The position numbers and the translations under genes are program-made. Below are positions 926 through 62,691 of a DNA stretch of 64,000 bases, piece by piece. Position 1 is the stretch's first letter; the number at the start of each line of letters is the position of its first letter. The DNA is taken from contig CAYXTO010000013.1 of the NCBI GenBank assembly GCA_964468045.1, positions 21,392 through 85,391 on the forward strand, given 5' to 3'. The notes under the pieces were generated by a model that saw only the letters and a list, made by a program, of their open reading frames with translations, was not told where the DNA came from and made no database searches. Source of the stretch: an uncultured Caenibius sp. GTDB lineage: Bacteria > Pseudomonadota > Alphaproteobacteria > Sphingomonadales > Sphingomonadaceae.

Positions 926-1084
926 GCGTAGGCTGTCAACGCGAAATTGCAGGGCCTCCTGTCTGTCGCATCATCGCGATCCGGAGGTTTTGCCAACAAG
1001 GACGGGCGCCCGGATGATGGCGAGAATCTGAAAGCGGGGCGGCTCAAGCCGAAAATGCGGCGGGCCGGCTGGAGGAGAGGGATT

Positions 1085-1807
1085 ATGGTTCAGCTTACCA
1101 CTGACAACAGCTACGGCACCTGGAAGTTCTGCGCCTGGAACGGCATGATTTTCATGGTGGTTTTCATGATCTTCTGGGGCGGCCTGGGTCATAACCTGCC
1201 CCCTTATGGCGGCGATCTGCCGGCCAGCACCATCGCGGATTATTTCCGTGACAATCGCAACATGGTGAGGCTGGGCATGGTCATCTCGATGACCTTCGCC
1301 GTCAGCTACGCGGTGTGGGGAATTTCCATCGGCAAGGTCATGGATCACATCCTTGGCCGGGATCACATCCTCACCAACCTGCAGGTCTGGGGCGCCGGAC
1401 TGACGGTGGTGCCCATCCTGGTTTCTTCCTCCTTCTGGCTGACGGGCGCCTATCGTCCGGAGGCACTGCCGGATGAAATCCTGCAGTTGATGTACGACAT
1501 GGCCTGGCTGCTGATCGACCTGGCCTATTCGGTCACCTCGGTACAGATGATCGCGCTCGGCTTCGGCTGCCTGCGCGACAAACGCGCCCAGCCCTTCTTC
1601 CCGAAATGGGTCTGCTGGTATTCCATCTGGGTCGGCTTCATGTTCGTCGCCGAATGCCTGATGCCGTTCTTCAAGTCCGGGGCCTTCTCCCGGCAGGGTG
1701 TCCTGAACTTCTGGATCGAGTTCGTGATCTTCTTCATCTACGCGCCAATCATCACCTGGTACCTGCTGAAGGCGATCAATCGCATCCAGCGCGGCGAAGG
1801 CGCCTGA
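1085..1807 (+). CDS. Integral membrane protein of unknown family (about 6 predicted TM helices)
   Basis: Internal ATG of ORF 947-1807, preceded by GGAGGAGAGGG at 1071-1081. The 240-aa product is rich in hydrophobic stretches (FMVVFMIFWGGLG, VISMTFAVSYAVWGI, GLTVVPILVSSSFWL, FWIEFVIFFIYAPIITWYLL). I recognise no catalytic motif. Confidence 0.7.
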   Translation: MVQLTTDNSYGTWKFCAWNGMIFMVVFMIFWGGLGHNLPPYGGDLPASTIADYFRDNRNMVRLGMVISMTFAVSYAVWGISIGKVMDHILGRDHILTNLQVWGAGLTVVPILVSSSFWLTGAYRPEALPDEILQLMYDMAWLLIDLAYSVTSVQMIALGFGCLRDKRAQPFFPKWVCWYSIWVGFMFVAECLMPFFKSGAFSRQGVLNFWIEFVIFFIYAPIITWYLLKAINRIQRGEGA

Positions 1808-1810
1808 TCC

Positions 1811-2446
1811 ATGATGGACACGGTCACGGCACCCCGGCCGGGGAAGAAAGCGCACGGCGGAACCGCCGGTCACACTACCGGTGGCGACGCGCGCTTCCCG
1901 GGCGACGAAGGCGTCTGGTTCTTCATCGTTGCGGATATGTGCATGTTCGCGGTGTTCTTCCTGCTGTTCATGGCCGGACAGGCGGAGGACCCGGACACCT
2001 ATCGCGAATCGCGGGCCCAGCTCGTTCCGGCGATCGGGCTGGTGAACACGCTGATCCTGGTTCTGAGCGGCTGGTTCATGGCCCGGGCCGTGAACGCCGC
2101 CCGGGCCGGGGAATGGCGAATCGCGCAACGCAGGATCATCCATGCCCTGCTGGTCGGTTCCTGCTTCGGGATGCTCAAGATCTACGAATATTCGACGAAG
2201 ATTTCGGCGGGCATCACCATCCAGACCAACGAGTTCTTCACATATTATTTCGCCTTCACCGGCATTCACTTCCTTCATTTCCTGATCGGCATCGGCGTGC
2301 TGCTGGTCTGCCTCGGCAAGATCAGGCAGGCCGACAATCCGCACCGGCTGAAATGGATCGAGAGCGCCGGCAATTACTGGCACATGGTCGACCTGCTCTG
2401 GATGATCCTGTTCCCGATGATCTATCTCGCGGGAGGATGGAAATGA
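1811..2446 (+). CDS. Heme-copper oxidase subunit III family protein (NorE/NirO-like, orphan)
   Basis: 211 aa with 5 TM-like segments. C-terminal YWHMVDLLWMILFPMIYL and FTGIHFLHFLIGIGVLL blocks are typical of the cytochrome c oxidase subunit 3 family. Starts 3 nt after the preceding gene. Confidence 0.8.
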   Translation: MMDTVTAPRPGKKAHGGTAGHTTGGDARFPGDEGVWFFIVADMCMFAVFFLLFMAGQAEDPDTYRESRAQLVPAIGLVNTLILVLSGWFMARAVNAARAGEWRIAQRRIIHALLVGSCFGMLKIYEYSTKISAGITIQTNEFFTYYFAFTGIHFLHFLIGIGVLLVCLGKIRQADNPHRLKWIESAGNYWHMVDLLWMILFPMIYLAGGWK

Positions 2447-2709
2447 CCCTCCGGATCAACGAGAACATCGCCCTCGTCCTGCTTGTCCTGCTTTCGCTCG
2501 GCAGCTTCGTCCTGGTCGAGGAGGACATCATGTCGCTCGCGGCCAGCCTTGCCGCTTTCGCCATCGGGCTGGTCAAGATAAACCTCGTGTTCGGCAGCTT
2601 CATGCATCTGGGCTGGCGACATCGCCCCTGGCGACAGGTACTCACTGTATGGCTGGCCGCAGTGGCGGTCATCCTTGCCACCGGGTTGGCAGTTCTTTCT
2701 TGGGAGTAG
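2443..2709 (+). CDS. Small two-TM membrane protein, prokaryotic oxidase subunit IV / NorF-like
   Basis: ATG at 2443 overlaps the upstream TGA (ATGA). The 88-aa product is MTLRINENIALVLLVLLSLGSFVLV...WRQVLTVWLAAVAVILATGLAVLSW. Size, two helices and its position after a subunit III homolog fit subunit IV-family proteins. Confidence 0.6.
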   Translation: MTLRINENIALVLLVLLSLGSFVLVEEDIMSLAASLAAFAIGLVKINLVFGSFMHLGWRHRPWRQVLTVWLAAVAVILATGLAVLSWE

Positions 2710-2713
2710 ATTG

Positions 2714-3658
2714 ATGTTTGACAATTCCGTTCTGGCCGAACCTGAAATGGCCATCGACCCGGCCCATGACGGCCGCCACGAACTGCCCAAGATCGCCATG
2801 GGGCGGGAATCCATCCCCTATATCGTGGTCCTGCCGGAGGAACGAATCGCCTTCTTCACCTACACCTGGGTCTCAGCCGACAGCAGGGCGGGTGCGGCCA
2901 TCGCGGTCTTCGGCCCCGGTGTCGGCGACAAGCCGATCCAGCAGCGCCTGCCGGACCGCCCGGTTCCCGCGGACATGGGTTTCGACAAGTGGGAAATCGA
3001 CGGGTTCCGGATGGAACAGGACCTGAAGTTCGACAAGGCGAAGATCCATTGGGAAACGCCGGAAGCGACGATCGATTTCACTTTCGAGGCGTTCCACCCG
3101 CCCTATGCCTATGCTTCCGACCCGCGCGGCTGCCCCAAATATTGCGCGACGGACCGGATCGAGCAGGCCGGCCGCGTCACCGGCACGCTGAAGCTGCCCG
3201 GCCGCACGATCGAGTTTGAAAGCACCGGGCACCGCGACCACAGCTGGGGCACGCGGGACTGGGTTCCCTTCCAGCAATATGAATGGTTCGTCGGCCAGAG
3301 CGGCACCGATATCGCGGTCCACTTCTGGCGCTTCCATGCGCTCGGCAAGGAGCATGTGCGCGGCTTCGTCTACAAGGACGGGCTGATGTCGCGGATCGAG
3401 ACGGTGGAGAATGACGTCGATTACGACGATCAGTACTGGCAGACCGGCTATCGCGCGCGCCTGGTCGACGCAGCCGGGCGGGAAACCACGGTGGAAACCG
3501 AGGTATTCGGTCATTACACGCTGCTGCCCGATCCGGTGGTGAGCCTGAACGAAAGCGGCGGGCGCGCCTTGATCGACGGCAAACCCGGTATAGGCTGGAT
3601 GGAATGCGCCTGGCCGACAGCCTATCTGGAACACATTCGCGCCCACGGCCCGTATTGA
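2714..3658 (+). CDS. Conserved hypothetical protein, unnamed family A, copy 1 of 3
   Basis: ATG at 2714 with GGGAG at 2702-2706. The 314-aa soluble-looking protein shares the blocks QAGRVTGTLKLPGRTIEFESTGHRDHSWGTRDW with the products of 34289-35248 and 57043-57981. Confidence 0.75.
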   Translation: MFDNSVLAEPEMAIDPAHDGRHELPKIAMGRESIPYIVVLPEERIAFFTYTWVSADSRAGAAIAVFGPGVGDKPIQQRLPDRPVPADMGFDKWEIDGFRMEQDLKFDKAKIHWETPEATIDFTFEAFHPPYAYASDPRGCPKYCATDRIEQAGRVTGTLKLPGRTIEFESTGHRDHSWGTRDWVPFQQYEWFVGQSGTDIAVHFWRFHALGKEHVRGFVYKDGLMSRIETVENDVDYDDQYWQTGYRARLVDAAGRETTVETEVFGHYTLLPDPVVSLNESGGRALIDGKPGIGWMECAWPTAYLEHIRAHGPY

Positions 3659-3720: not shown

Positions 3721-4827
3721 ATGGAAGCCGTCGCCGCCGTTCTGGAGGAGCCTTCGGGCCCGTTCTCCATCGAAACCGTCGAAGTGGCCGCGCCCAAGGC
3801 GGGCGAAGTGCTGGTCGATATCAAGGCGGTCGGCATCTGCCATACCGATCTCGCCGCCGCGACCGGCGCCTTCGGCAATCCCTTCCCGGTGGTGCTGGGC
3901 CACGAGGGTGCGGGCGTGGTCGAAGCCGTCGGCGAAGGCGTCACCAACGTCAGGCCGGGCGACAAGGTGCTGCTGACCTTCAACAGCTGCGGCGAATGCA
4001 AGCGCTGCAAGTCCAACGATCCGGCCTACTGCCTCCAGTTCTTCCCGATGAACTTCGGCTGCGTCCACAGCGACGGCACGAACCGCCTCTCCAAGGACGG
4101 CGCCACGGTCTATGACAACTTCTTCGGCCAGTCGTCCTTCGCGGCCAAGGCGGTGGCCAATTCCCGCAACGTGCTGAAAGTGGCAGACGACGCCGATCTC
4201 GCCACGCTCGCGCCTCTCGGCTGCGGCATCCAGACCGGCGCCGGCGGCGTGATGCGCTCGCTCAGCGCGAAGCCGGGCGAATCGCTGGTGGTGATCGGCG
4301 GCGGCGCGGTGGGGCTTTCGGCCGTGATGGGCGGCAAGATCGCCGGATGCGATCCGATCATCCTCATCGAACCGCAGGCCGCCCGCCGCGAGGAAGGGCT
4401 GGCGCTGGGCGCCACCCATGCGATCGATCCCGCGGCACAGGCCAGCACGGCCGAAGCGGTTCGCGCCATCGTGCCGGAAGGCGTGGACATGGTGGTCGAC
4501 ACCAGCGGCTACCTGCCCGCGGTCGAGCAGGCCGTGAACATGGTCTGCACGCTGGGCCGGATCGGCCTGATCGGCGTGCCCGGCTCGCTCGATGCGGCCC
4601 TTCCCGTCCCGCTCGTCCAGTTCATCACCATGGGCGGTACGGTTCGCGGCATCATCGAGGGTGACAGCGACATCATCGGCTTCCTCCCCGAGTTGATCGC
4701 GCACCATGCCGCCGGCCGCCTGCCGGTGGACAGGATCATCTCACGCTATCCCTTCAGCGATATCAATCGGGCTATCGAGGACGGCCATCACGGCAAGTGC
4801 ATCAAGGCCGTGCTGACATTCGACTGA
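3721..4827 (+). CDS. Zinc-dependent alcohol dehydrogenase (MDR family, aryl/alkyl-alcohol dehydrogenase-like)
   Basis: GICHTDL and GHEGAGVVEAVGEGV catalytic-zinc motifs, CGECKRCKSNDPAYC structural-zinc loop, GGGAVGLSAV Rossmann motif. RBS AAGGGAG at 3706-3712. Confidence 0.9.
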   Translation: MEAVAAVLEEPSGPFSIETVEVAAPKAGEVLVDIKAVGICHTDLAAATGAFGNPFPVVLGHEGAGVVEAVGEGVTNVRPGDKVLLTFNSCGECKRCKSNDPAYCLQFFPMNFGCVHSDGTNRLSKDGATVYDNFFGQSSFAAKAVANSRNVLKVADDADLATLAPLGCGIQTGAGGVMRSLSAKPGESLVVIGGGAVGLSAVMGGKIAGCDPIILIEPQAARREEGLALGATHAIDPAAQASTAEAVRAIVPEGVDMVVDTSGYLPAVEQAVNMVCTLGRIGLIGVPGSLDAALPVPLVQFITMGGTVRGIIEGDSDIIGFLPELIAHHAAGRLPVDRIISRYPFSDINRAIEDGHHGKCIKAVLTFD

Positions 4828-4837
4828 GAGGACCGAG

Positions 4838-5626
4838 ATGACCAATCCAAGCATGCGACTTGAGCGCGACGGCGCGCTGGCGCGCATTACCTTCACCCAG
4901 GCCGAGCGCGGCAATCCGATCGACGGGGAATTCTGCAGCGCATTCGGCGATATTGCGGACGATATTTCGGAAGACCGTTCGGTCCGCGCGGTGCTGATCA
5001 CCGCCGAGGGCAAGAATTTCAGTTTTGGCGGGGACGTGCGCAAGTTCCAGGCGGCGAAGGATGACCTGCCGAAGCTGATCAAGGAATGGACCCGCGACCT
5101 GCATGTCGGCATTGCCCGCCTGCAGCGGATGGATGCCCCGATCGTCGCCGCGATCCAGGGCATCTGCACCGGGGGAATGACCGGCACGATCGCGGGCTCC
5201 GACATCGTCGTGATCGAACCGTCCACCAAGTTCGTCGCGGCCTATGCGGGTATCGGCTATTCCAACGACGCCAGTTCCTCGGTGATGTTCGCGCGGCGCA
5301 TGGGCATCGCCCGCGCCAAGCGGTTCCTGATCATGAACGAGATTCTCGATGCGGAGGCCGCCGTCGCGGCTGGCCTAGCCGACGAAATCGTCCCGGCGGA
5401 CAGCCTTCTCGCCAGGGCCGAGGAAATCGCGCAGCGGCTCGCCCAGGGGCCGACGCGCGCCTTCGGCGAAATCCGGCGGCTGCTCAATAGCGTGGGCGAC
5501 CAGCCGCTGGAAACGCAGCTCGAGCTGGAAGCGCAGGCGCTGGCTCGCATCGCCCGTACCGCCGACGCGCAGGAAGGGCTCACCGCTTTCGTCGAGAAGC
5601 GCAAACCGCAATTTCGGGGAGAGTGA
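4838..5626 (+). CDS. Enoyl-CoA hydratase/isomerase (crotonase) family protein
   Basis: 262 aa with a crotonase-fold pattern: LARITFTQAERGNPID, FSFGGDV oxyanion region, and C-terminal EGLTAFVEKRKPQF typical of the family. Confidence 0.9.
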   Translation: MTNPSMRLERDGALARITFTQAERGNPIDGEFCSAFGDIADDISEDRSVRAVLITAEGKNFSFGGDVRKFQAAKDDLPKLIKEWTRDLHVGIARLQRMDAPIVAAIQGICTGGMTGTIAGSDIVVIEPSTKFVAAYAGIGYSNDASSSVMFARRMGIARAKRFLIMNEILDAEAAVAAGLADEIVPADSLLARAEEIAQRLAQGPTRAFGEIRRLLNSVGDQPLETQLELEAQALARIARTADAQEGLTAFVEKRKPQFRGE

Positions 5627-5632
5627 TCGGAA

Positions 5633-7192
5633 ATGTGGCTGTATCCGGAAGTTCGCACTCTCGGGCAATTCATCGAATATCATGCCCGCAAGACGCCTGA
5701 TCGGCGCGCGCTGGTGTGGGGTGACCGCACGATTTCCTTCGCCGAATATGATCGCGCCGCCAATCGGGTTGCAAATGGGCTGATCGCGCGGGGGGTCGAG
5801 GCGGGCCATCGCGTGGGCTTCTTTGGCCTGAACAGCCCGGATTTCTATTTTGCGCTGACCGGCACCGCGAAGACCCGCGGCGCATTCACGGTGTTCAACT
5901 GGCGGCTGGCCGTACCCGAGCTGGTCCAGCTGATCCAGGACAGCCAGACCCGGCTGTGCATAGTCGAACGCGCGCTGGAGGATTTGTGGAACGAGGCGAT
6001 CGCTTCCTGCACAGGCGGGATCGAGACGATCTGGATCGACGAGACCACCACCCTGGAAACGATCTTCGCCGATCAGCCGGGGGAAAAGCCCGACATCTTC
6101 ATCAGCGAGGAAGATACCGCGATCCAGCTTTACACCTCCGGCACCACGGGGATTCCCAAGGGGGTGATGCTCAGCCACGGCGGCTTCAACCGCATGCGGC
6201 TGTGCGAGCATTTCGAGCCCACCTATCATTGGGAAGATGATGACATCTTCATCAATCCGCTTCCCAATTTCCATCTGCTGTCGATCGGCATCGCCTTTCA
6301 GTGCCTCTACAACGGCGTCGGGATCTCGATCGTGCGGCAGTTCAATCCCGCCACGGTGCTGGCGACGATCCAGCATGACAGGCCGACCCTGCTGACGCTG
6401 ACGCCCACGATGATCCAGATGCTGCTGGATCATCCGGATGCCCAGACCACGGATTTCTCGTCGCTGCGCCTGACCCTTTATGCGGGTTCGCCGATTTCGC
6501 TGGGGCTGATCAAGCGCGCCATCGAAATGATGCCTTGCAAGTTCATGCAGTTCTACGGCGCGACAGAGGCCAACGGCGCCTTTTCGATCCTGCGTCCGGA
6601 GGAGCATGACCTCAATGACGAGGCCAAGCTGCAAAGCTGCGGACGGCCCCTGCCGCTGATCGAATTCCGCATCGTGGATTCCGAAGGAAACGAAGTGCCC
6701 GATGGCGAACCCGGCGAATTGCTGGTCCGCGCGCCCGCCATTTTCATGGGCTACTGGAACCAGCCGGAAACCACCGCCAAGGTGATAGAAAGCGGCTGGT
6801 ATCACTCCGGCGATGTCGCCCGGCGCGATGCCGAGGGGCTGTATTATATCGTGGACCGGGTGAAGGACATGATCGTCTCGGGGGGCGAGAACATCTATTC
6901 CGCCGAAGTCGAGAATGTCATTTCCACTCACCCCCAGGTCGCGGCCGTGGCGGTGATCGGGGTGCCGGATGCGCGCTGGGGGGAAGCGGTCAAGGCCTGC
7001 GTGATCGCGAAGCCCGACCAGACGGTGGATGAAGCCGACATCCTGGCCTATGCGCGGGAGAAGCTCGCCGGCTACAAGGTGCCGAAGAGCGTCGATTTCT
7101 TCGAGAGCTTCCCGCTGGTGCCCAGCGGCAAGGTGTCCAAGAAGGATCTGCGCGCACCCTATTGGGAAGGCGTGGGCCGCTCCGTTTCCTGA
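5633..7192 (+). CDS. AMP-dependent acyl-CoA synthetase/ligase
   Basis: AMP-binding motif LYTSGTTGIPKGVMLSH, GYWNQPE, YHSGDVARRDAEGLYYIVDRVKDMIVSGGENIY, and C-terminal PSGKVSKKDLR. Confidence 0.9.
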   Translation: MWLYPEVRTLGQFIEYHARKTPDRRALVWGDRTISFAEYDRAANRVANGLIARGVEAGHRVGFFGLNSPDFYFALTGTAKTRGAFTVFNWRLAVPELVQLIQDSQTRLCIVERALEDLWNEAIASCTGGIETIWIDETTTLETIFADQPGEKPDIFISEEDTAIQLYTSGTTGIPKGVMLSHGGFNRMRLCEHFEPTYHWEDDDIFINPLPNFHLLSIGIAFQCLYNGVGISIVRQFNPATVLATIQHDRPTLLTLTPTMIQMLLDHPDAQTTDFSSLRLTLYAGSPISLGLIKRAIEMMPCKFMQFYGATEANGAFSILRPEEHDLNDEAKLQSCGRPLPLIEFRIVDSEGNEVPDGEPGELLVRAPAIFMGYWNQPETTAKVIESGWYHSGDVARRDAEGLYYIVDRVKDMIVSGGENIYSAEVENVISTHPQVAAVAVIGVPDARWGEAVKACVIAKPDQTVDEADILAYAREKLAGYKVPKSVDFFESFPLVPSGKVSKKDLRAPYWEGVGRSVS

Positions 7193-30540: not shown

Positions 30541-30600
30541 AAATTCTTGTTTCGGGGGTGCCAAAATGCTTTGAACCTGCTGCGGGATGAGGATCGGATT

Positions 30601-31176
30601 ATGAGCGACACAGTGGAAACCTCTGAGAAGCAGGGCTGGCAATTGCCCGGATGGGCACATGCGACCGGCGCGATCACCCTTGGCCCAGGCGTCCTGCACG
30701 GCGATGCGGAAGCTCGGCAGCTCGTGGTCGAGCGGGTGGCCCGCTATTGCTGGGCCTATGATGAACGGCGGGCGGATCTGCTCGCCGATTGCTTTACCGA
30801 GGATGGCGTCTGGGAAGGAAATGTGCTGGACCAGGTCCCGATCGGCCCGTTCAAGACACGCCAGGGGATAGTCGAATGGCTGACGGGTTTCTGGCCGCAC
30901 CAGCATGACCAGCGCCGGCATATGCTGCTCAACAATCTTGTTGAAAGTCTGGATTCCGACAGCGCAGTGACGTTCAGCTATCTGCTGCTGATGTCGAGCG
31001 ACGGTGAGGCCTCCAAGATCGAGTGCACCGGCTTCTACCGTTGCGAATTGTCCAGGCAGGGCAATGTCTGGCGGATCGGCAGGATGACCGCCTGTTTCGA
31101 TGCGCCGTTCTGGCCCGGCAAGCTCGATCGCATGAGTGAGAGGGGGCGGCGGCGGCATGGTGTCCTTGCAGACTGA
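30601..31176 (+). CDS. SnoaL-like / NTF2-superfamily protein
   Basis: Start at MSDTVETSEK (ATG 30601). VVERVARYCWAYDERRADLLADCFTEDGVWEG is the typical SnoaL_4-type N-terminal helix / cone pattern. Confidence 0.7.
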   Translation: MSDTVETSEKQGWQLPGWAHATGAITLGPGVLHGDAEARQLVVERVARYCWAYDERRADLLADCFTEDGVWEGNVLDQVPIGPFKTRQGIVEWLTGFWPHQHDQRRHMLLNNLVESLDSDSAVTFSYLLLMSSDGEASKIECTGFYRCELSRQGNVWRIGRMTACFDAPFWPGKLDRMSERGRRRHGVLAD

Positions 31177-32815
31177 ACTGCAGCCGGTGTCGGAAAGAAG
31201 GAAGCCGCTGACCGAATCCTACTGGCCTGCCAGTCAGGATTCGCAATTATATCCCGTGACCTGCGGCAGCGTGCTGCGCGCTTCGGCGGCGCGATGGCCC
31301 GACAAGGTGGCGCTGGTCGATCCCGGCGAAGATGGCCGGCCCATCCGCCGCTGGACCTATGCGGAATTGCTTGCCGAGGCCGAAAAGGTCGCCGATCTCC
31401 TCGCCGCGCGGTTTGCGAAAGGGACCCATGTCGCAATCTATGCGGCGAATTGCCCGGAATGGGTGTTCGTCCAGTTCGGCGCCGCATTGGCCGGAATGGT
31501 GCTGGTGACCGTAAATCCGGCCTGCAACACCGCAGAGCTCGCTTATATCTTGAGGCAGTCGCGATCGCGTGCCGTATTCCATCAGCAATCGTGGCGCGGC
31601 ATCGAAATGGGCGCCGTGGTGGATGAAGCGGCCGCGCGGGAACGGCTGGAGATCGCGCTGAAGGTCAATATCGACGATCCCGCCCGGCTTCGCGCCCCGG
31701 ATGGTCCGCCGGCGCCGTTGCCCAATGTCGCTCCCGCCGATCCGGCGATGATCCAGTATACGTCCGGCACCACGGGTTATCCCAAGGGCGTATTGCTGTC
31801 CCATCACCAGATCGCCAACACTTCGCGCATCATGGCGGAAGTGAAGGAGCTCGACGAGAGCACCATAAACCTTTCCGTGGCGCCGCTGTTCCACACCGGG
31901 GGCTGCGTGGGCGGTGTTCTCGGCGCGGTTCAGATGGGATCCACCCTCATTCTTCTGCGCTCCTTCGAGCCGGAGTTCATGCTGGACCTGATCGAGGCGG
32001 AAAAGGTCACATATACCTTCGCCGTGCCGACCATGCTGATCTCCTTGCTGCAAGCGCAGCGTCAGCGGCCGCGCGATCTTTCCAGCCTCTCCATGGTCTT
32101 CTCCGGCGGCGCGACAGTGCCGGTTTCGGTCGTGCAGGACACGGAACGGGAATTCGGCGTGCGCCTGATCATCGGCTATGGCCTGACCGAAAGCTCGCCA
32201 GCCATTACCCATACCCGCCCCGGCGACAATGCCAGGGACATCAGCGAAACCATCGGACGGCCCATCCCGCTGGTGGAGGTCAAGATCGTCGATCCGGAGA
32301 CCGGCGCAATCCAGCCGATCGGGGTCTCGGGTGAATTATGCTGCCGCGGTTTCAACGTCATGATGGGCTATTACGACATGCCCGAGGCGACCGCCGCCGC
32401 CATCGATCCGGACGGCTGGCTGCACTCGGGCGACCTGTGCCAGATGGACGAGCGCGGCTATTGCCGCATCACCGGCCGCCTGAAGGACATGATCATTCGC
32501 GGCGGCGAGAACATCTATCCGCGAGAGATCGAGGAAGTCCTGATCGCTCATCCTGAAATCGCTTCGGTCGCGGTGTTCGGTATCCCCGATGAATATTGGG
32601 GAGAGCAGGTGGGTTGCGCATTCGTGCCGGAACCTGGCCGGGCACCGAATGCGGCGACGCTGGCCGAACATTGCGGCAAGAGCCTGGCCCGCCACAAGAT
32701 CCCGAAGATATGGTTCTCGATGGCGGACCTGCCGCTGACTCCGTCCGGCAAGATCCAGAAATTCCGCCTGGGGGAAATGGCGGCGGCCGGCGATCTCGAT
32801 TACGCCCGGCTGTGA
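31157..32815 (+). CDS. AMP-dependent acyl-CoA synthetase/ligase
   Basis: IQYTSGTTGYPKGVLLSH, GYGLTESS, HSGDLCQMDERGYCRITGRLKDMIIRGGENIYPREIE, PSGKIQKF. ATG at 31157 preferred over GTG at 31136. Overlaps the SnoaL stop by 20 nt. Confidence 0.85.
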   Translation: MVSLQTELQPVSERRKPLTESYWPASQDSQLYPVTCGSVLRASAARWPDKVALVDPGEDGRPIRRWTYAELLAEAEKVADLLAARFAKGTHVAIYAANCPEWVFVQFGAALAGMVLVTVNPACNTAELAYILRQSRSRAVFHQQSWRGIEMGAVVDEAAARERLEIALKVNIDDPARLRAPDGPPAPLPNVAPADPAMIQYTSGTTGYPKGVLLSHHQIANTSRIMAEVKELDESTINLSVAPLFHTGGCVGGVLGAVQMGSTLILLRSFEPEFMLDLIEAEKVTYTFAVPTMLISLLQAQRQRPRDLSSLSMVFSGGATVPVSVVQDTEREFGVRLIIGYGLTESSPAITHTRPGDNARDISETIGRPIPLVEVKIVDPETGAIQPIGVSGELCCRGFNVMMGYYDMPEATAAAIDPDGWLHSGDLCQMDERGYCRITGRLKDMIIRGGENIYPREIEEVLIAHPEIASVAVFGIPDEYWGEQVGCAFVPEPGRAPNAATLAEHCGKSLARHKIPKIWFSMADLPLTPSGKIQKFRLGEMAAAGDLDYARL

Positions 32816-32823
32816 TCCCCGGC

Positions 32824-32904
32824 TGGCCGGAGATTGACCTGACCATCGAAACCTCCATTACCGACAAATAACCAAAATTGATTCGGATTTTGGCCGGAGA
32901 TTGA
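32824..32904 (+). repeat. 14-bp perfect direct repeat TGGCCGGAGATTGA flanking an AT-rich spacer
   Basis: Copies at 32824-32837 and 32891-32904. The second ends 14 nt before the LLM start codon, the first begins 8 nt after the synthetase stop. Confidence 0.5.
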
Positions 32905-32918
32905 AAGGAAACCATAAC

Positions 32919-34118
32919 ATGGCGCAAAAGCGCATGAGATTTGGTGCATTCATTGCGCCGCATACCCCAACCGACGAGCATCCCTCGCTGAGCCTTGAAG
33001 AGGATATGGAGCGAGTGGTGTGGATGGAAAAGCTGGGTTTCGATGAAGCCTGGATTGGCGAACATCACTCCAGCGGCTGGGAAATCAACGGCAGCCCGGA
33101 GATCTTCATCGCCGCGGTCTCGCAACGCACCAGCCGAATCAAGCTCGGCACCGGGGTGGTTTCACTGCCCTATCACAATCCTTTTACGGTGGCCGACCGC
33201 ATCCGGCAGCTCGACCATGTCACCAAGGGCCGCACCATTCTCGGCATGGGGCCGGGCTCGCTGCCGTCCGATGCGTACATGATGGGCATTCCCACCGCTG
33301 AAGCGCGGGACCGGATGGAGCAAGCGATCGAGCCGATCGTGCGGCTGCTGAACAATGAGATCGTGACCGCCAAGACCGACTGGTTCAACCTGCAGGAAGC
33401 CAGGCTCCAGCTCGATCCCTATAATGACGATGGCGTGGAAGTAGCTGTCGCCAGCCAGGTTTCGCCGACCGGGGCGCGAGCGGCGGGCAAGTTCGGCCTG
33501 TCGATGTTGGCGATCGGCGCGACCTCTGCAGGCGGGTTCAATGCGCTGGCCTCCAACTGGGCGATCGCCGAAGAAACCGCCGCCGAGCACGGCAACCAGA
33601 TGGACCGGAATGGCTGGCGCCTGGTCGGACCCGTTCACGTGGCCGAAACCCGCGAAAAGGCCCGCGAGAATGTCCGTTACGGATTGGAACGGTGGATCGA
33701 ATACATGTCGCAGGTTGCGGCTATTCCGCTGGCGCCGCCTGCCGGGCAGGATCCGGTGGATTATATGATCGATACCGGGTTCGGAGTGATCGGAACGCCG
33801 GACGATTTCGTGGCGCAGATGAGCCGGCTGTCGGAGCAATCGGGCGGGTTCGGCTGCTTCCTCAACCTGGACAATCACTGGGCCGACTGGGAGCAGACCA
33901 AGCGCTCCTACGAGCTGATCGCCCGCTTCGCCATTCCGAAGATCAACAAGCTCAACGAATCCCGCATCCGTTCGGAGACCTGGCTGCGGGAGAACAACGC
34001 CCAGTTCAAGGGCGAACTGACCGCGGCGGTGCGCTCCAAGATGGAGGAATACGCCCGGGAAAAGGGCATGGACAAGCTGTCCCCCGATCTCGTCGCACAC
34101 TTCAAGGCCAATACCTGA
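32919..34118 (+). CDS. Luciferase-like (LLM-class) flavin-dependent monooxygenase/oxidoreductase
   Basis: ATG at 32919. MRFGAFIAPH...GFDEAWIGEHHSSGWEINGSPEIFIAAVSQRTSRIKLGTGVVSLPYHNPF is the typical LLM TIM-barrel N-terminus, seen in proteins annotated as limonene monooxygenase-like. Confidence 0.85.
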   Translation: MAQKRMRFGAFIAPHTPTDEHPSLSLEEDMERVVWMEKLGFDEAWIGEHHSSGWEINGSPEIFIAAVSQRTSRIKLGTGVVSLPYHNPFTVADRIRQLDHVTKGRTILGMGPGSLPSDAYMMGIPTAEARDRMEQAIEPIVRLLNNEIVTAKTDWFNLQEARLQLDPYNDDGVEVAVASQVSPTGARAAGKFGLSMLAIGATSAGGFNALASNWAIAEETAAEHGNQMDRNGWRLVGPVHVAETREKARENVRYGLERWIEYMSQVAAIPLAPPAGQDPVDYMIDTGFGVIGTPDDFVAQMSRLSEQSGGFGCFLNLDNHWADWEQTKRSYELIARFAIPKINKLNESRIRSETWLRENNAQFKGELTAAVRSKMEEYAREKGMDKLSPDLVAHFKANT

Positions 34119-34128
34119 AGGCCGATCC

Positions 34129-34159
34129 GGGGCGGTGCAATGCGCCGCCCCTTTATATT
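34129..34159 (+). terminator. Candidate rho-independent terminator after the LLM gene
   Basis: GGGGCGG (34129-34135), 9-nt loop, CCGCCCC (34145-34151), followed by TTTATATT. Confidence 0.45.
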
Positions 34160-34288: not shown

Positions 34289-35248
34289 ATGATTCGCCCC
34301 GAAGACGTAAGCTACCATACGCCCCAGGACGTCCAGTACGACTGGGCTGAAACCAGCTTCTTCTCCTTCCATGTTCCCGAAGCAAATCTTACGGGATGGA
34401 TCTATCTCATCGCCCGGACCGGCCTCGGCTCCATAGTCTGCGATATCGAAGTGATGGACCGGATCGGCCGGATCACTCTCGAAACCGTCTATTTCGACTT
34501 CCAGCAGCATCTGCCCTTGCCGGAAAAGCTCGAGGACTTCTCGCTGCTCAATGGCCTTTCCCTCAAGACCGAGAACGAACCGCGCGACTATGTTCTCGAT
34601 TACCAGGGCACGGACGACACCTTCTTCAAGCTGAAGTTTACCGGGCTGATGGATCCGTTCGATATCCATGATCCCAGCATGGATCCCCTTGCATCGGTGG
34701 ATCCCAACCAGAGCGGGTTCGGTTCCGCTTATGCAAACCACTTCGACATGACGGTTCACACCACCGGCAAGGTCCGCATCCGGGGCAAGGACTACGACAT
34801 CGATTGCGTGACGACGATGGATCACAGCTGGGGGCCCCGCAACGAGCGTGGCATGAACCCGATGGGCTGGATCAACGGCAATTTCGGGACCGATTTCGCT
34901 TTCCAGACAATCTGGAAGCTGGATCAGCTCAAGCAAGGCTGGGACCAGTTCGAGCTGGCCCACGGCTACGTGCTGATCGACGGCAAGGTGAAGGGCCTGA
35001 CCAAGGGCCGGATGCAGGCCGTCCGGCAAGGTCCCTTCCCGGCCGGGTATGAAACTGTCCTGACCGATCTGGACGGTCGCGAATACACCTTCACCGGCAC
35101 CACGGTGAACCAGACGCCCTGGGCTTGCTACAGCAACATCATGGCCATCAATTCGACCGTGAAGTGGTTCCACAATGGCCGGCCCGGCTATGGTCTCGCT
35201 CAGGAAAACTGGCCGCTCGACCGCTTGACCGGCAAGGGCCTTGCCTGA
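34289..35248 (+). CDS. Conserved hypothetical protein, unnamed family A, copy 2 of 3
   Basis: 319 aa. Shares WAETSFFSFHVPE and HTTGKVRIRGKDYDIDCVTTMDHSWGPRNE with the corresponding blocks of 57043-57981 and 2714-3658. RBS GGAGAGGA upstream. Confidence 0.75.
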   Translation: MIRPEDVSYHTPQDVQYDWAETSFFSFHVPEANLTGWIYLIARTGLGSIVCDIEVMDRIGRITLETVYFDFQQHLPLPEKLEDFSLLNGLSLKTENEPRDYVLDYQGTDDTFFKLKFTGLMDPFDIHDPSMDPLASVDPNQSGFGSAYANHFDMTVHTTGKVRIRGKDYDIDCVTTMDHSWGPRNERGMNPMGWINGNFGTDFAFQTIWKLDQLKQGWDQFELAHGYVLIDGKVKGLTKGRMQAVRQGPFPAGYETVLTDLDGREYTFTGTTVNQTPWACYSNIMAINSTVKWFHNGRPGYGLAQENWPLDRLTGKGLA

Positions 35249-54413: not shown

Positions 54414-54476
54414 CTAGCGCCTTGACCTTGATCAAGAAAGCGAATCTTTCTCGGCTTTTGATCAAGGCCTCGCTAG
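54414..54476. repeat. Nested inverted-repeat element containing two TTGATCAA palindromes
   Basis: CTAGCG (54414-54419) / CGCTAG (54471-54476). CCTTGATCAA (54426-54435) / TTGATCAAGG (54458-54467). GAAAG / CTTTC around 54436-54450. Lies between the EthD stop and the BVMO start. Confidence 0.5.
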
Positions 54477-55303: not shown

Positions 55304-55804
55304 TCAGATCACCGTTTCGAGCGGCGGCAGCTTGTCGCGGTCAGGATCGATCCCGTTGCCCTTGAACCACACCCGGCTGCGCAGCGCATCCTTCTCGCCA
55401 TAAGCGAGAATTACATCCCAGGCACCGCGTGGCAATGGCTTGCGGCCTTCATCGCCGAGGATGACCCGGTCGATCGCATGGCCGAGCGTGCAGATGCCCC
55501 CATTGAGCGCATCGATATCGTACAGGTCGAGATCCGCCACCTGACCGAGCGCGGCGCGCAGACCGGCGGCCTGCTCATCATCCACCTCGGGCGCGAGCGC
55601 TTCGGCCAACTCGCGGATCATCCGGAAGGAACCGGCTTCGTAGCGCACGGCGTGCTTCCATTGATCCTTGAGCATGGCGAGATGGCCGACGATCAGGCGC
55701 ACCTGCTCCTGCGCCAGTTTCTGGTCATCCGGAATGGCGGGAGCGACCACTTCCTGCATCGCCTTCATCATGTTCCTGAAGCGGACATCGACACTGGGCA
55801 GCAT
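55304..55804 (-). CDS. Hypothetical protein (166 aa, probably all-helical), translationally coupled to the kinase gene
   Basis: ATG at 55802-55804 overlaps the kinase stop (ATGA), with AGGAGGA 7 nt upstream. No recognisable motif. Confidence 0.65.
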   Translation of the reverse strand: MLPSVDVRFRNMMKAMQEVVAPAIPDDQKLAQEQVRLIVGHLAMLKDQWKHAVRYEAGSFRMIRELAEALAPEVDDEQAAGLRAALGQVADLDLYDIDALNGGICTLGHAIDRVILGDEGRKPLPRGAWDVILAYGEKDALRSRVWFKGNGIDPDRDKLPPLETVI

Positions 55805-56997
55805 CAGATTTCCTCCTTGAGCATCTTGGTGATCTGTTCGAGGAAAACCGCGCCCGCCGAGCCGAGCCAGGTCATCACGTTTTCCTGATGATTGGTGTGC
55901 CCTTCGGCGACGCGCATCGCCTGGCCGAGATCCATCACCGCGCATTTGTAGGCGTTCAGCATCTCATACCAGCGCAACTTGACCGGATCGATCACATTGC
56001 CCGACAGCTGCTGATATTTTTCCAGAAACTCTTCGCGCGGGAGAAAGCCGGAAACGAGGAACTGCCCGTTGTCGTCGAGATAGCCGAACAGGCGCTGGAT
56101 GGTCCAGGCGATGTCCTCATGATAATCGCCCAGATGGCCCAGCTCCCAGTCGAGCACGGCCGTGAATTGCCCGCTCGGCTCCTCGAACATGAAATTGCCG
56201 ATGCGCAGGTCGCCGTGCACCACCCCGACCTTGTCGCAAACCGGGATGTTCTCCCGCAGCCAGCGTTCGCACAGGGTAATGATCGGCACGGGCTCGACTA
56301 TCGCGTTCCAGTAAAGGCCGGACCAGAAGTTCAGCTCCCACAACGCGGCATCCGTGGTGCCCGCCCTCGGCCTGGCGAAGAGCGAGAGATCCTTCGAACG
56401 CCAGTCCAGCCCATGGGTCTTGACGAATGCATCGACGAACTGGGGCGTAAGCTTGGGCGCGATGTCGTCGAAGCGGGTGCCCATGCCCGACACGCCCTTG
56501 GCCCCGCCGCTGGTGGGCTCGGTCACCCCGGAAACGAATTCCAGGATGGAGCCCGCCTGATCCAGTATGTCGGCATCGACATCGACGTGGCGGATCGTGG
56601 CGACCGGCAAGGTGCCGATCATCGCGTTCTGCAATTGCGCCTCGCGACCGCGGCAGGATTGGGAAATCCCTTCCGGCGGATCCATCCGCAGGACGAGCTT
56701 CTCGCCGCCCGGCCTGTCGGCATGGGCCACATCGAAAATGAACTGCTCCTTGGAAGCCCCGCCGGACATGCGGCGCACGTTCGCGATGGTGGCGTCCTTG
56801 TAGCCGAGATGATCGAAATAGCGCTTGAGCATCGCCGCGATCTCGTCACTCGTGCGGGCGCGATAAGGCCCCTTCCGCCGATAGGCGAGCGTGCGCTCCA
56901 GAACCCATTTCTGCCGGGGGTCCATCGCATCGCGATCCCATGGATCGGCAAAGGTCTTATCGTCCCCTTCGCGGACTTCCTCTTCAAGCATCTGCAT
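55804..56997 (-). CDS. APH-fold phosphotransferase (aminoglycoside phosphotransferase / ACAD10-11 N-terminal kinase-like family)
   Basis: SGGASKEQFIFDV nucleotide-lobe block, catalytic loop VVHGDLRIGNFMFEE (HGD-x4-N), and VLDWELGHLGDYHEDIAW (DWE motif). Confidence 0.85.
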   Translation of the reverse strand: MQMLEEEVREGDDKTFADPWDRDAMDPRQKWVLERTLAYRRKGPYRARTSDEIAAMLKRYFDHLGYKDATIANVRRMSGGASKEQFIFDVAHADRPGGEKLVLRMDPPEGISQSCRGREAQLQNAMIGTLPVATIRHVDVDADILDQAGSILEFVSGVTEPTSGGAKGVSGMGTRFDDIAPKLTPQFVDAFVKTHGLDWRSKDLSLFARPRAGTTDAALWELNFWSGLYWNAIVEPVPIITLCERWLRENIPVCDKVGVVHGDLRIGNFMFEEPSGQFTAVLDWELGHLGDYHEDIAWTIQRLFGYLDDNGQFLVSGFLPREEFLEKYQQLSGNVIDPVKLRWYEMLNAYKCAVMDLGQAMRVAEGHTNHQENVMTWLGSAGAVFLEQITKMLKEEI

Positions 56998-57042: not shown

Positions 57043-57981
57043 CTAGTTTCCGTTGCCGCGCCACGGGAAATTGAAGCCGCCTTCGCCCATGCCATAGCCG
57101 AGCGTGCCGTCCGCGAGCCGGAACTCCATCATCTGCTCGACCATCATGAAAGTGTCGAACGGATAGTGCCAATGGAACATCGGCTTGCCTGTGAACTCCC
57201 ACAGGCGGCCGGTTTCATCCCATATCTTCCAATGGCCCGATTTGAAGCGGACGCCGTCTTCGTAATATTCGATTTCCTCTTCCATACGGTCGATCGCCAT
57301 CCAGCGCGTGCCATCATGCAGGATTTTCTGATAGCTGTGCCCGTGGTCGGTGATGCCGTGGACGGCGACGCAGGCCATGCCATTGTCGAAGATCGGCCAG
57401 ACGAGGCGATAATGGTGAAGCCCGGACCAGTTGCGCGGCCCCGCGCTGATATCGCGCCAGCCCGTGGTATCGATCGCCACGGTTTCGCCATTCTTCAGCT
57501 TGAGCGTACCCTTGACCGAGCACACGCCCTCGGGGTGGTAGAAACTCAGCTCGCGCCCGATCGCGTCATCGTCGCTCTTCTCGTCCTTGCCGACATGGAT
57601 GCTGTCGCAAAGCTCGAACAGCTGATCCCACAAGAGATCCGCCGAGAAATCCTCATGCGCGATGGTGACCCTGCAGCTCTGGAGGGGTTTCTCGACCTTG
57701 AAGGTAATCCCGGCCAGGGTGACGCCCGGATCGGGCCGATCCTCGGTATAGGGGAGGTTCATGTTGCTGCGCAGGAACAGCGGCTTTCCATCGCGGAAGA
57801 AGATCGCCCAGCAATTGCTTTCACCGAGGTTCTCCAGAAACCCCATCCGGATGAAGGCGCCGCAGCCCGTGTGGCGGTCATAGAAATTGAAGAAGTAGCT
57901 CTGGTTCCATTTGCGGATGTCCGGATTGCGGATCAGCTTCTCGCAATCCCGCTGCAGGGCATCCAGAGTCAGCTCGGTCAT
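57043..57981 (-). CDS. Conserved hypothetical protein, unnamed family A, copy 3 of 3
   Basis: Start at MTELTLDALQ (ATG 57979-57981) with GGGAGAG upstream. WNQSYFFNFYDRH and VCSVKGTLKLKNGETVAIDTTGWRDISAGPRNW align with the other two copies. Confidence 0.75.
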   Translation of the reverse strand: MTELTLDALQRDCEKLIRNPDIRKWNQSYFFNFYDRHTGCGAFIRMGFLENLGESNCWAIFFRDGKPLFLRSNMNLPYTEDRPDPGVTLAGITFKVEKPLQSCRVTIAHEDFSADLLWDQLFELCDSIHVGKDEKSDDDAIGRELSFYHPEGVCSVKGTLKLKNGETVAIDTTGWRDISAGPRNWSGLHHYRLVWPIFDNGMACVAVHGITDHGHSYQKILHDGTRWMAIDRMEEEIEYYEDGVRFKSGHWKIWDETGRLWEFTGKPMFHWHYPFDTFMMVEQMMEFRLADGTLGYGMGEGGFNFPWRGNGN

Positions 57982-60529: not shown

Positions 60530-60734
60530 CAAGTTCCTCCCTGAAGCGAACTCCGACATGAGTTCGGCTTTTCCAGAGAGCGGCTCGTAATTTCGGACGA
60601 CGGATTGTCAACGTATTCCCGACAATGTTTCAGGAAAATACTCCAACGTGTTGCAAAAAAGGCGCAGCCGCTTTTCTACGGTGATCCTCGGGTCTGGAGT
60701 GTGATTTCCCCGCCGTGCCGTTCAAAGCAAACCA

Positions 60735-61304: not shown

Positions 61305-61494
61305 CTCTCTACTCTCCCGATTTCGCTACGAAGAGCGAGGTAAACCGGCAGGGCCTGTCATTGTCAATCGATTCTCCTTCGGCTTTTGGAGATTCGCGCT
61401 GCCCCCTTGGCTTGCCGGGCGACAGGCTATAGGCGGGTGTTCCGCAAAACCATGGGCCATCAGCAGGCCGGACCACATCCAACTGGACGAGGAT

Positions 61495-62691
61495 ATGCCG
61501 ACAGACATTCGCAGCAACCCAGACAAGGCCTGGATCGAAGCCGTTCGCGAGCGGTATGAGGTCGAACGGACGGTGGACCTCGCCCTCACCCGCAAGCTGG
61601 AGCGGCGCGGCGCGCAGACTTTCAGCATCGCCCAGCTCGATGAATTGACCCAGCGGCTGGAAGCCTTCCTGGCGAAGCGGCTCGAAGGACCTTTCGCGAT
61701 TCGCAACCTGCGCGCGCTGACGGGGGGCAATTCCAAGGAGCAGTTCTCCTTCGAGCTCGACTGGAATTGCAATGGCGAGGCCCGCAAGGGCGAAAAGATG
61801 GTGCTCCGCCGCGAGCAGGCCGAATCCATCGTGGAGGCCGACAAGCTGAGGGAATTCCAGCTGGTCAGGGTGGCCGCATCGATGATGCCGGTTCCTACCG
61901 CCTACTGGCTGGACGAAAGCGGGGATGAGCTGGGCCGCCCCGCGCTGATCTACAGCTTCGTGACCGGAGTGCAGAAGCCGACCAAGTCAACCAGCAAGGT
62001 CACTGGAATCGGGATCAATTTCGATGCCGATTACCGCGCCGCGCTCGGGCCGCAATTCATCGATTACCTCGCGCGGATCCATAATTTCGAGCCTGCCGGG
62101 CACGACCTGTCCGCCTTCGATATGCCGCAGGTCGGCACCACTCAGGATGTGGACTGGCAGATCAACTGGTGGGCCAGGGCCTGGTTCGAGGACCGGCTGG
62201 AAGAGGTCCCGCTCATGACTATGGCCGAGCGGTGGCTCCGGGCCAACCGCAAGCCCCTCGATCATGTGTCGCTGATCCACGGCGATTTCCGCACCGGCAA
62301 CTTCCTGTTCGACGAGGATACGCTCAAGATCACGGCGATACTCGATTGGGAAACCGGATATTTCGGCGATCGCCATGGCGATCTAGCGTGGGTCCTCAAT
62401 CCGGTCTTCATCACCCCATCCGAAACCGGCGAGCCGCTGTACACTTCGCTCTTCGCACGCGACAAGTTCCTGCGTGATTACGAGAAGGCGAGCGGCCTCA
62501 CGGTGGATGAGGAACGGCTGACCTATTATAATATATTCGCTTATTGGCGTTCGGTCGTGCTCACCCTGGGCGCCGGCCCGCGCGCGGCGGGGGCGCTCAA
62601 GACTCATCAGGACGTCGTGCTGAGCTGGTTCGCGGGGATTTCCTATCCTCTCATCGAGGCACTGCGCCGGGAACTGGACAAGGTCGTCTGA
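61495..62691 (+). CDS. APH-fold phosphotransferase, paralog of 55804-56997
   Basis: Start moved to MPTDIRSNPDK (ATG 61495). TGGNSKEQFSFEL, LIHGDFRTGNFLFDE, ILDWETGYFGDRHGDLAW align block for block with the other kinase. Confidence 0.85.
   Translation: MPTDIRSNPDKAWIEAVRERYEVERTVDLALTRKLERRGAQTFSIAQLDELTQRLEAFLAKRLEGPFAIRNLRALTGGNSKEQFSFELDWNCNGEARKGEKMVLRREQAESIVEADKLREFQLVRVAASMMPVPTAYWLDESGDELGRPALIYSFVTGVQKPTKSTSKVTGIGINFDADYRAALGPQFIDYLARIHNFEPAGHDLSAFDMPQVGTTQDVDWQINWWARAWFEDRLEEVPLMTMAERWLRANRKPLDHVSLIHGDFRTGNFLFDEDTLKITAILDWETGYFGDRHGDLAWVLNPVFITPSETGEPLYTSLFARDKFLRDYEKASGLTVDEERLTYYNIFAYWRSVVLTLGAGPRAAGALKTHQDVVLSWFAGISYPLIEALRRELDKVV

Follow-up and report, generated by a model that had tools for sequence, protein, structure and literature searches.

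We have analysed a 64,000-nucleotide stretch of DNA from an uncultured Caenibius sp. (contig CAYXTO010000013.1, positions 21,392 to 85,391; hereafter, the window), which carries three genes for related proteins, designated c1, c2 and c3 (coordinates in Table 1). The three open reading frames (ORFs) lie where a preliminary description, made from the sequence alone, had placed them, and their translations agree with those it quoted. That description named no strand; c3 is read from the minus strand (57981 to 57043), and the plus-strand frame at 57043-57981 was discarded as the c3 gene because it gives a different, meaningless sequence.

In BLASTP comparisons, c1 matched c2 with an E-value of 5e-10 (26% identity across 167 residues) and c3 with an E-value of 2e-6, the c2-c3 match being not significant on its own (E = 0.11). 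A hidden Markov model (HMM) of the c1 family recovered c2 (5e-12) and c3 (3e-8) from the window and found no fourth family copy in it. All three proteins exceeded the Pfam gathering cut-offs of DUF7065 (PF23213; 36.5, 34.8 and 35.2 bits for c1, c2 and c3, cut-off 27) and DUF7064 (PF23212; 86.1, 52.7 and 46.9 bits, cut-off 24.7), with DUF7065 N-terminal and DUF7064 C-terminal in each copy, which places them in this family. Since both domains are common to all three and the c1-family HMM finds only c2 and c3, the paralogy is real and the copies are exactly three. Hence, the similarity noticed by eye in the preliminary description exceeds chance for the set while being weak pairwise, and the family that it had left unnamed is catalogued as Pfam DUF7065+DUF7064, without an assigned function. 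A full-text search for papers on "DUF7064" returned none.

The central block that had been noticed in the three copies corresponds to the family signature, R-D-x-S-W-G-x-R, and the N-terminal block described for c2 and c3 aligns as well. Judged by eye, the N-termini are polar and lack a signal-peptide-like stretch, as had been stated. A profile search (E ≤ 1e-3) over 1.84 billion representatives, with clusters at 50% identity, retrieved 2,272 clusters of the DUF7065/7064 family. Homologs of the window proteins belong mainly to Sphingomonadales, and members of the family are found in catabolic islands rich in oxygenases, in Sphingomonads and in marine or soil Gammaproteobacteria.

Fold and sequence relation to 25-phosphosteroid lyase

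We have modelled c1 and c3 with AlphaFold (AF2) from alignments of 36 and 41 sequences, respectively. Both models (pLDDT 93.7, pTM 0.91) showed a two-lobed, almost wholly beta architecture. When these were compared with the PDB using Foldseek, the entries of 25-phosphosteroid lyase (25-PSL; 9g4c, 9fzn and 9g2i, released in January 2026), an enzyme of Sterolibacterium denitrificans, occupied ranks 1 to 5 for both models, with TM-scores of 0.67-0.72. The best match of c1 was 9g4c_B (E = 1.7e-13, TM-score 0.72) and that of c3 was again 25-PSL (E = 4.7e-15), so that the two models have the same fold as the solved lyase. Ranked below it were AttH (2ICH, E about 1e-10), the fungal pericyclases Fsa2, Phm7 and CghA (E about 1e-10) and kievitone hydratase (7a0t, E about 1e-8). 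The AttH/CrtC-like fold that the preliminary description had offered as a guess was therefore correct.

The relation to 25-PSL extended to the sequence level. The NCBIfam model NF053593 ("Rv3169 family", Rv3169_fam) has a curated whole-protein cut-off of 150 bits, and 25-PSL is a full member (394 bits). The scores of c1, c2 and c3 were 41.8 bits (E = 6.7e-11), 19.2 bits (E = 5e-4) and 41.9 bits (E = 6.2e-11), matches that by these values are significant for homology and far under the cut-off. Reciprocally, 25-PSL, whose full sequence was taken from the PDB alignment to the ortholog in a Sterolibacterium metagenome-assembled genome (MAG), matched only DUF7065 (E = 0.008) and DUF7064 (E = 0.11) in Pfam, in colinear order and below threshold. 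Comparison with the 25-PSL family by hhalign gave probabilities of 88-90% (E about 2e-6), with an alignment of near full length for c3 (residues 13-304 versus 19-354 of the 25-PSL family, E = 2.8e-6), and jackhmmer searches started at c1 or c3 converged on 25-PSL-like ORFs. In phmmer searches of the PDB, 25-PSL was the sole match of c1 in the motif region and c3 alone returned nothing relevant. The 25-PSL match was not improved by searching PDB sequences with the c1-family profile (E = 0.088); the link was established by the fold search and the NCBIfam model. A narrow HMM of 25-PSL close relatives matched no window protein, whereas the broader NCBIfam model and hhalign did, and a 41-residue fragment of 25-PSL used as homolog-search query found no match. 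Because each side falls below the family cut-off of the other, the DUF7065/7064 and Rv3169/25-PSL groups are, on these sequence comparisons, sister families, clear but distant homologs, and not a single family. In one locus (L118:9758-12446), a DUF7064-type gene and an Rv3169/25-PSL-type gene (motif RSRDRSWGR) stand back to back, so that both sister families are present together there.

Both 25-PSL and the window proteins have about 310-360 residues, are cytoplasmic, lack a cofactor motif and share the two-lobed all-beta fold at a TM-score of about 0.7. They also carry, with substitutions in c2 and c3 that are given below, three colinear motifs: (W/F)-x-x-x-Y-F-F-N-F in the N-terminal part, R-D-x-S-W-G-x-R in the centre and G-x-G-x-x-E in the C-terminal part. 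The columns kept across all four aligned groups (c1 numbering) were R/H148, G157, R174 (Met in c2), D175, G179, R181, W191, D252, G292, G294 and E297, and c1 has kept without exception the residues common to the 25-PSL family (R-D-x-S-W-G-x-R, W, D and G-x-G-x-x-E).

Kinase and small-protein genes accompanying the family

The gene directly downstream of c3 encodes a kinase of the aminoglycoside phosphotransferase (APH) family, APH1, and its stop codon overlaps the start of a third gene (TGATG), whose small product had no Pfam and no PDB match. APH1 is 49-59% identical to the kinases that follow c3 orthologs in Sphingobium and Spongiibacter, where the order TonB receptor, DUF, APH and small protein is kept. 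Trios of DUF, APH and small-protein genes lie beside c3 relatives in L004, L005 and L006 (L numbers designate the loci compared), and the receptor-DUF-APH order was seen in L004, L006 and L139. Hence, c3 has an adjacent APH-type partner kinase in an arrangement that is conserved elsewhere. The Sphingobium trio is tandemly duplicated, its second DUF protein being c1-type (37% identity).

We have further scored the presence of an APH gene within 800 bp of family genes in 50 metagenome loci with c2 relatives and in four genome loci, some of the loci being near-duplicates, so that the counts are not fully independent. Such a gene was found for 28 of the 49 scorable family genes. Trios occur beside c1 relatives in L087, L088, L139, L141 and a second L004 trio; c1 orthologs (55-75% identity) directly precede an APH and a small-protein gene in Novosphingobium sp. 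9U, Reyranella and two more assemblies, and one c1-ortholog trio is also located behind a TonB receptor. Beside c2 relatives, trios were found in L087, in L096 and in many metagenome loci. The L087 trio, ordered APH, 170-aa protein and DUF, is closed by a protein 40% identical to c2, and 21 c2 relatives at 35-47% identity with the signature HDMDHSWGR belong to APH trios. A partner kinase of c1 and c2 is indicated only by relatives in other genomes and by a possible kinase acting in trans. The Met that replaces the first motif Arg in c2 was considered as a marker of kinase independence and rejected, with 21 kinase-linked and 18 unlinked Met-type proteins.

The possible trans kinase is APH2, encoded by the second APH gene of the window. 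Its best match was the kinase of the L087 trio closed by the c2 relative (42% identity), which makes APH2 a candidate trans partner for c2 or c1. The roughly 100 residues that the longest ORF adds to its N-terminus (61189-61491, plus strand) are of low complexity, rich in Cys, Ser and Arg, and unlikely to be coding, and the true start is probably the ATG at 61492 (MPTDIRSNPDKAW...). A 500-aa APH2 had been considered as the ortholog of a 501-aa APH beside the c1 ortholog of L087, which the identity of only 28% did not sustain. The solved relatives of APH1 and APH2 are Rv3168 (3ATS/3ATT), the Sterolibacterium kinase 9fsg and the kinase domain of ACAD11, of which ACAD11 is the most distant from both window kinases and Rv3168 is the best solved relative of APH2 (E = 1.6e-16).

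Homologs of the small protein follow the kinase at L004:12117-12629 and 14793-15299, L006:12143-12700, L088:12095-12568 and L087:8033-8545, and a protein of about 155-185 residues accompanies the APH kinase in every trio. Possibly it serves the kinase or the lyase as an accessory subunit. A diverged SCP2 carrier was considered, since an SCP2 domain takes the equivalent place in the fusion protein P0335 (described below); we have rejected this reading at the sequence level, given an hmmsearch E-value of 0.16 and an hhalign probability of 0.1%, which leave a positional analogy only. The window contains no third kinase gene, no second small-protein gene and no Y_phosphatase3 gene. In three unrelated genomes, a Y_phosphatase3 gene (PF13350) lies within a few kb of the modules (L004:18102-18842, L088:20038-20805 and L139:12729-13454); that its product recycles dead-end phosphoesters of a promiscuous kinase is speculation.

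A direct connection between the components was provided by a protein of the representatives library (P0335, 766 aa), which contains APH (60-266), SCP2 (369-445), DUF7065 (466-638) and DUF7064 (642-761) domains. As Rosetta-stone evidence, this fusion points to a function that the parts exert jointly on a lipophilic ligand. The preliminary description had attached each copy to a different oxygenase/activation module; the informative partner turned out to be the APH kinase with the small protein, which form a conserved trio with the DUF gene, the kinase and DUF parts being fused in P0335.

The window family is kinase-adjacent far more often than the 25-PSL family (28/49 scorable genes versus 7/51 loci) and has, in addition, a third, small partner protein. 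Kinase adjacency is therefore not a defining feature of the proven 25-PSL enzyme, and the missing neighbour kinase of c1 and c2 is weak evidence against a lyase role. Metagenome loci L100, L101 and L106 carry up to four DUF7065/7064 genes per 20 kb, several with their own APH and small-protein genes, and multi-copy arrays like that of the window appear typical of the family.

Candidate reaction and rival explanations

Phosphorylation of 25-hydroxysteroids by a 40-kDa kinase of the phosphotransferase family is followed by phosphate elimination by a separate C-O lyase, yielding a delta-24 alkene (PMC7411048, PMC8449060). The lyase gene was still unknown or putative in accounts of 2021 and 2024 (PMC8449060, PMC11061730), and the 2021 paper reported no lyase candidate near the gene of the 25-hydroxysteroid kinase (25-HSK). 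In a Sterolibacterium MAG (L008:9515-13123), an APH gene that lies 1.3 kb from the 25-PSL ortholog has a product virtually identical (711 bits) to the Sterolibacterium kinase 9fsg, a close relative of Rv3168. The kinase 9fsg may differ from the published 25-HSK, or its link to the lyase may have gone unrecognised in 2021.

Like the DUF7065/7064 family, 25-PSL has an Rv3168-type kinase of the APH fold as its partner or as a gene neighbour. Based on this parallel, on the genomic association with kinases, on the fold and on the remote homology, we propose, with a probability of about 55%, that c1, c2 and c3 are phosphate-eliminating C-O lyases that complete an ATP-dependent dehydration of lipophilic alcohols. 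The proposal is well supported for c3 and is extended by inference to c1 and c2. An APH-family kinase (APH1 beside c3; APH2, or APH1 in trans, for c1 and c2) would use ATP to phosphorylate a poorly reactive hydroxyl, most plausibly a tertiary or otherwise non-oxidisable one, of a terpenoid-, steroid- or branched-alkyl-type lipophilic substrate imported via the TonB receptor or made by the oxygenases of the island. The DUF7065/7064 barrel would then bind the phosphoester and release phosphate by elimination, leaving an alkene, so that the two steps together amount to an ATP-driven dehydration, and the alkene would pass to the surrounding alcohol dehydrogenase (ADH), CoA-ligase and beta-oxidation-like enzymes. 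The three paralogs would represent three substrate specificities. The hydration of isoprenoid double bonds contemplated in the preliminary description is probably reversed, as 25-PSL forms an alkene by removing the phosphate group of a phosphorylated tertiary alcohol. The window proteins stand outside the Rv3169/25-PSL family but most likely work like 25-PSL.

Several observations weigh against a lyase role. The preliminary description had reasoned that a confident hit to a characterised enzyme explaining the proteins' role would undo its proposal; this applies in part, as the fold and profile match to 25-PSL is confident, but the identity is only 15-17%, the enzyme belongs to a sister family and the match does not fix the substrate or the exact reaction. 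The three proteins fall short of Rv3169_fam membership (42, 19 and 42 bits versus 150), and two insertions of 25-PSL, of about 15 and about 35 residues, are missing from them. The motif itself is altered in two copies: c2 reads T-M-D-H-S-W-G-P-R, with Met for the first Arg, and has Gln for the final Glu, and c3 has Ala at the motif Trp. Its conservation, as seen in these alignments, may be structural rather than catalytic. The window holds three DUF genes, two APH genes and one small-protein gene, leaving c1 and c2 without an adjacent kinase. No nearby APH was found for 21 of the 49 scorable family genes, L140 has two tandem family copies without an APH, and the close c2 orthologs (at least 70% identity) never have an adjacent kinase, while the upstream gene for a luciferase-like monooxygenase (LLM) is kept. 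Finally, the superfamily also includes true hydratases and pericyclases.

The main rival, and the reading offered in the preliminary description, is a cofactor-free hydratase or dehydratase of the CrtC, kievitone-hydratase or AttH type, acting on an isoprenoid C=C bond or alcohol with no phosphorylated intermediate. We consider it unlikely; it could fit c1 and c2 even if c3 were a phospho-lyase. The shared superfamily fold (AttH 2ICH, E about 1e-10; kievitone hydratase 7a0t, about 1e-8) speaks for it, as do a UniRef record that labels a c3 ortholog "hydroxyneurosporene synthase" and an AttH-type hydratase on archaeal isoprenoid lipids, reported in a preprint (bioRxiv 10.1101/2025.10.20.683597). 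However, 25-PSL ranked above all hydratases in both fold searches and was alone detectable by sequence, and c1-c3 had no match to Pfam CrtC (PF07143) or Lipocalin_9/AttH (PF17186) at E ≤ 1. The lack of an adjacent kinase for c1, c2 and 21/49 family genes would agree with a direct hydratase, but c1-type and c2-type relatives are kinase-linked in other genomes, the APH fusion P0335 exists, and missing adjacency says little when the family of the proven lyase is kinase-adjacent at only 7/51 loci. Somewhat less probable still is that the kinase phosphorylates a hydroxyacyl-CoA and that the DUF protein replaces an eliminase of the acyl-CoA-dehydrogenase (ACAD) type. The abundance of AMP-ligases, ACADs, enoyl-CoA hydratases (ECHs) and thiolases in the island, the AMP-ligase genes flanking c1, c2 and the L141 trio, and the match of the window kinases to the ACAD11 kinase domain and to 3dxp are compatible with such a CoA-thioester phosphate lyase. 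Yet Rv3168 and 9fsg resemble the kinases more closely than ACAD11 does, free lipophilic ligands are suggested by the TonB receptor and by the SCP2 domain of the fusion, and the sole characterised relative uses a free steroid.

A non-catalytic role, in which an AttH/lipocalin-like barrel takes over the hydrophobic compound that enters by way of the TonB receptor and passes it on to the kinase or the oxygenases, appears improbable. The barrel fold is typical of lipid binders, the gene directly follows a TonB receptor in several genomes, and the SCP2 domain of P0335 indicates that ligand hand-over matters in this system; but P0335 thereby already has a dedicated carrier domain besides its DUF domains, the polar and charged residues that do not vary within families (R, D, H, S, R, D and E), and that extend to 25-PSL, fit an active site better, and there is no signal peptide although TonB cargo reaches the periplasm. 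A pericyclase, cyclase or isomerase similar to the fungal decalin synthases Fsa2, Phm7 and CghA is very improbable: the Foldseek similarity (E about 1e-10) is in fold only, with none in sequence, Pfam scans found no polyketide synthase, non-ribosomal peptide synthetase or other biosynthetic genes in the window, the island being catabolic, and the kinase linkage would be left unexplained.

The proposed lyases were also compared with known systems. The source of 25-PSL is a denitrifying bacterium that degrades steroids anaerobically, whereas the window is an oxygenase-rich, aerobic island of a Sphingomonadales-like bacterium. In Mycobacterium tuberculosis, Rv3168, which has the APH fold (PMC3691515), and Rv3169 form one TetR-controlled operon (PMC5340868). 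This pair resembles the window in joining a kinase gene to a barrel-protein gene, here under a TetR-family repressor (PMC5340868), but Rv3169 belongs to the 25-PSL family and not to DUF7065/7064, and no small third gene has been noted. AttH (NE1406, 2ICH), the CrtC hydroxyneurosporene synthase and kievitone hydratase share the overall fold and act on lipophilic isoprenoid-type substrates, but have no detectable sequence similarity to the window proteins and add water without ATP or a kinase. In the LvaA/LvaB-LvaC and ACAD10/ACAD11 systems, as proposed here, an APH-family kinase makes a phosphoester and phosphate elimination gives an alkene; the substrates, however, are CoA thioesters (4-hydroxyacyl-CoA) and the eliminase is a flavoprotein of the acyl-CoA-dehydrogenase fold instead of an AttH-like barrel. 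The dependence of LvaA on a small partner protein, LvaB, would have its counterpart in the small protein of the trio.

To our knowledge, the one documented case of ATP-dependent dehydration by a kinase and a phosphate lyase is the C25-hydroxysteroid step in the anaerobic breakdown of cholesterol, and the chemistry has been known from one anaerobic steroid degrader. Relative to the literature that we found, the sister-family link to 25-PSL, the three-gene cassette, the coupling to a TonB receptor, the APH-SCP2-DUF fusion and the occurrence in aerobic, oxygenase-rich islands are new. A wider generalisation, which we put forward tentatively and with less confidence than the lyase proposal itself, is that DUF7065/7064, APH kinase and small protein are the three components of a modular cassette, an ATP-dependent alcohol dehydratase, which would be widespread in aerobic Proteobacteria, would often follow a TonB receptor and be present in several copies per locus, and would sometimes be fused to SCP2. 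Such a cassette would be a general answer to dead-end (tertiary) alcohols in terpenoid and steroid catabolism; in the window, three substrate-specific lyases would share two kinases, with the small protein as a new obligatory subunit. If the lyase proposal holds, two Pfam DUFs would gain a function, and in catabolic clusters many genes annotated as "aminoglycoside phosphotransferase", perhaps Rv3168 among them, would need reinterpreting. Then, c3, APH1 and the small protein would offer a concrete enzyme set to try on tertiary terpenoid or steroid alcohols, and alkenes could be made biocatalytically from unreactive alcohols.

Gene neighbourhood of the three copies

Gene calling based on codon usage and Pfam scans revealed that the window is a catabolic island of the lipid/terpenoid type with 63% G+C. 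Its degradation genes encode several acyl-CoA dehydrogenases, enoyl-CoA hydratases and thiolases with ChsH2-type OB proteins, together with a biotin carboxylase set, three AMP-ligases, an HpcH-type lyase and BKACE. The oxygenases comprise a Baeyer-Villiger-type flavin monooxygenase (BVMO), the LLM and a fatty-acid-desaturase/FNR fusion, and a PQQ dehydrogenase and the TonB receptor are encoded as well. The gene neighbourhoods that the preliminary description had assigned to the three copies agree with the Pfam results, and its view that the three paralogs are soluble and rich in beta structure, and that a single catabolic island has recruited the family three times, is supported. The features are listed in Table 1.

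Table 1. Window coordinates of the three family genes and of the features discussed with them
Feature	Position	Strand	Remarks
Membrane trio upstream of c1	947..2709	+	Pfam
Copy 1 (c1)	2714..3658	+	314 aa; DUF7065+DUF7064; candidate phospho-alcohol lyase
Zn-ADH, ECH and AMP-ligase downstream of c1	3721..7192	+	Pfam
Desaturase/hydroxylase-FNR-ferredoxin fusion	7244-9109	-	621 aa; divergent from the c1 operon
SnoaL-like protein, AMP-ligase and LLM upstream of c2	30547..34118	+	Pfam
Terminator-like hairpin between the LLM gene and c2	34129..34159	+	Stem 34129-34151, then T-run
Copy 2 (c2)	34289..35248	+	319 aa; DUF7065+DUF7064
BVMO	52701-54359	-	Pfam; downstream of the trio
EthD-domain protein	54473-55261	-	Pfam; downstream of the trio
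Small protein, third trio member	55304..55804	-	166 aa; no Pfam or PDB match
APH1, APH-family kinase	55804..56997	-	About 395 aa; Pfam APH; directly downstream of c3
Copy 3 (c3)	57043..57981	-	312 aa; DUF7065+DUF7064; leads the trio of candidate lyase, kinase and small protein
TonB-dependent receptor upstream of c3	58070..60559	-	Pfam Plug + TonB_dep_Rec
APH2, second APH-family kinase	61492..62691	+	About 399 aa; Pfam APH; longest ORF from 61189

The minus-strand run around c3 has the order TonB receptor, c3, APH kinase, 166-aa protein, EthD protein and BVMO. The receptor is the probable route of substrate uptake. Judged from orientation and short gaps only, the EthD and BVMO genes would belong to the trio operon.

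Upstream of c2, the gene order is kept with c2 orthologs of 82% identity in L090 and L092. The hairpin that follows the LLM gene has 10 pairs, 9 of them G-C, which suggests that c2 may be transcribed apart from that gene.

The membrane trio upstream of c1 is composed of a 286-aa protein without a Pfam match, a COX3-like protein (1811-2446) and a COX4_pro-like protein (2443-2709), and c1 starts 4 nt past the last of these genes. It lacks COX1 and COX2, and recurs near the c1 ortholog at L087:3196-4798, the first protein having 243-286 residues. Downstream of c1, the Zn-ADH gene has counterparts that also trail the modules in L004, L087 and L139. The fusion encoded divergently from this operon joins a membrane fatty-acid-desaturase/hydroxylase, an FNR-type FAD/NAD-binding part and a 2Fe-2S ferredoxin, forming a self-sufficient di-iron oxygenase.

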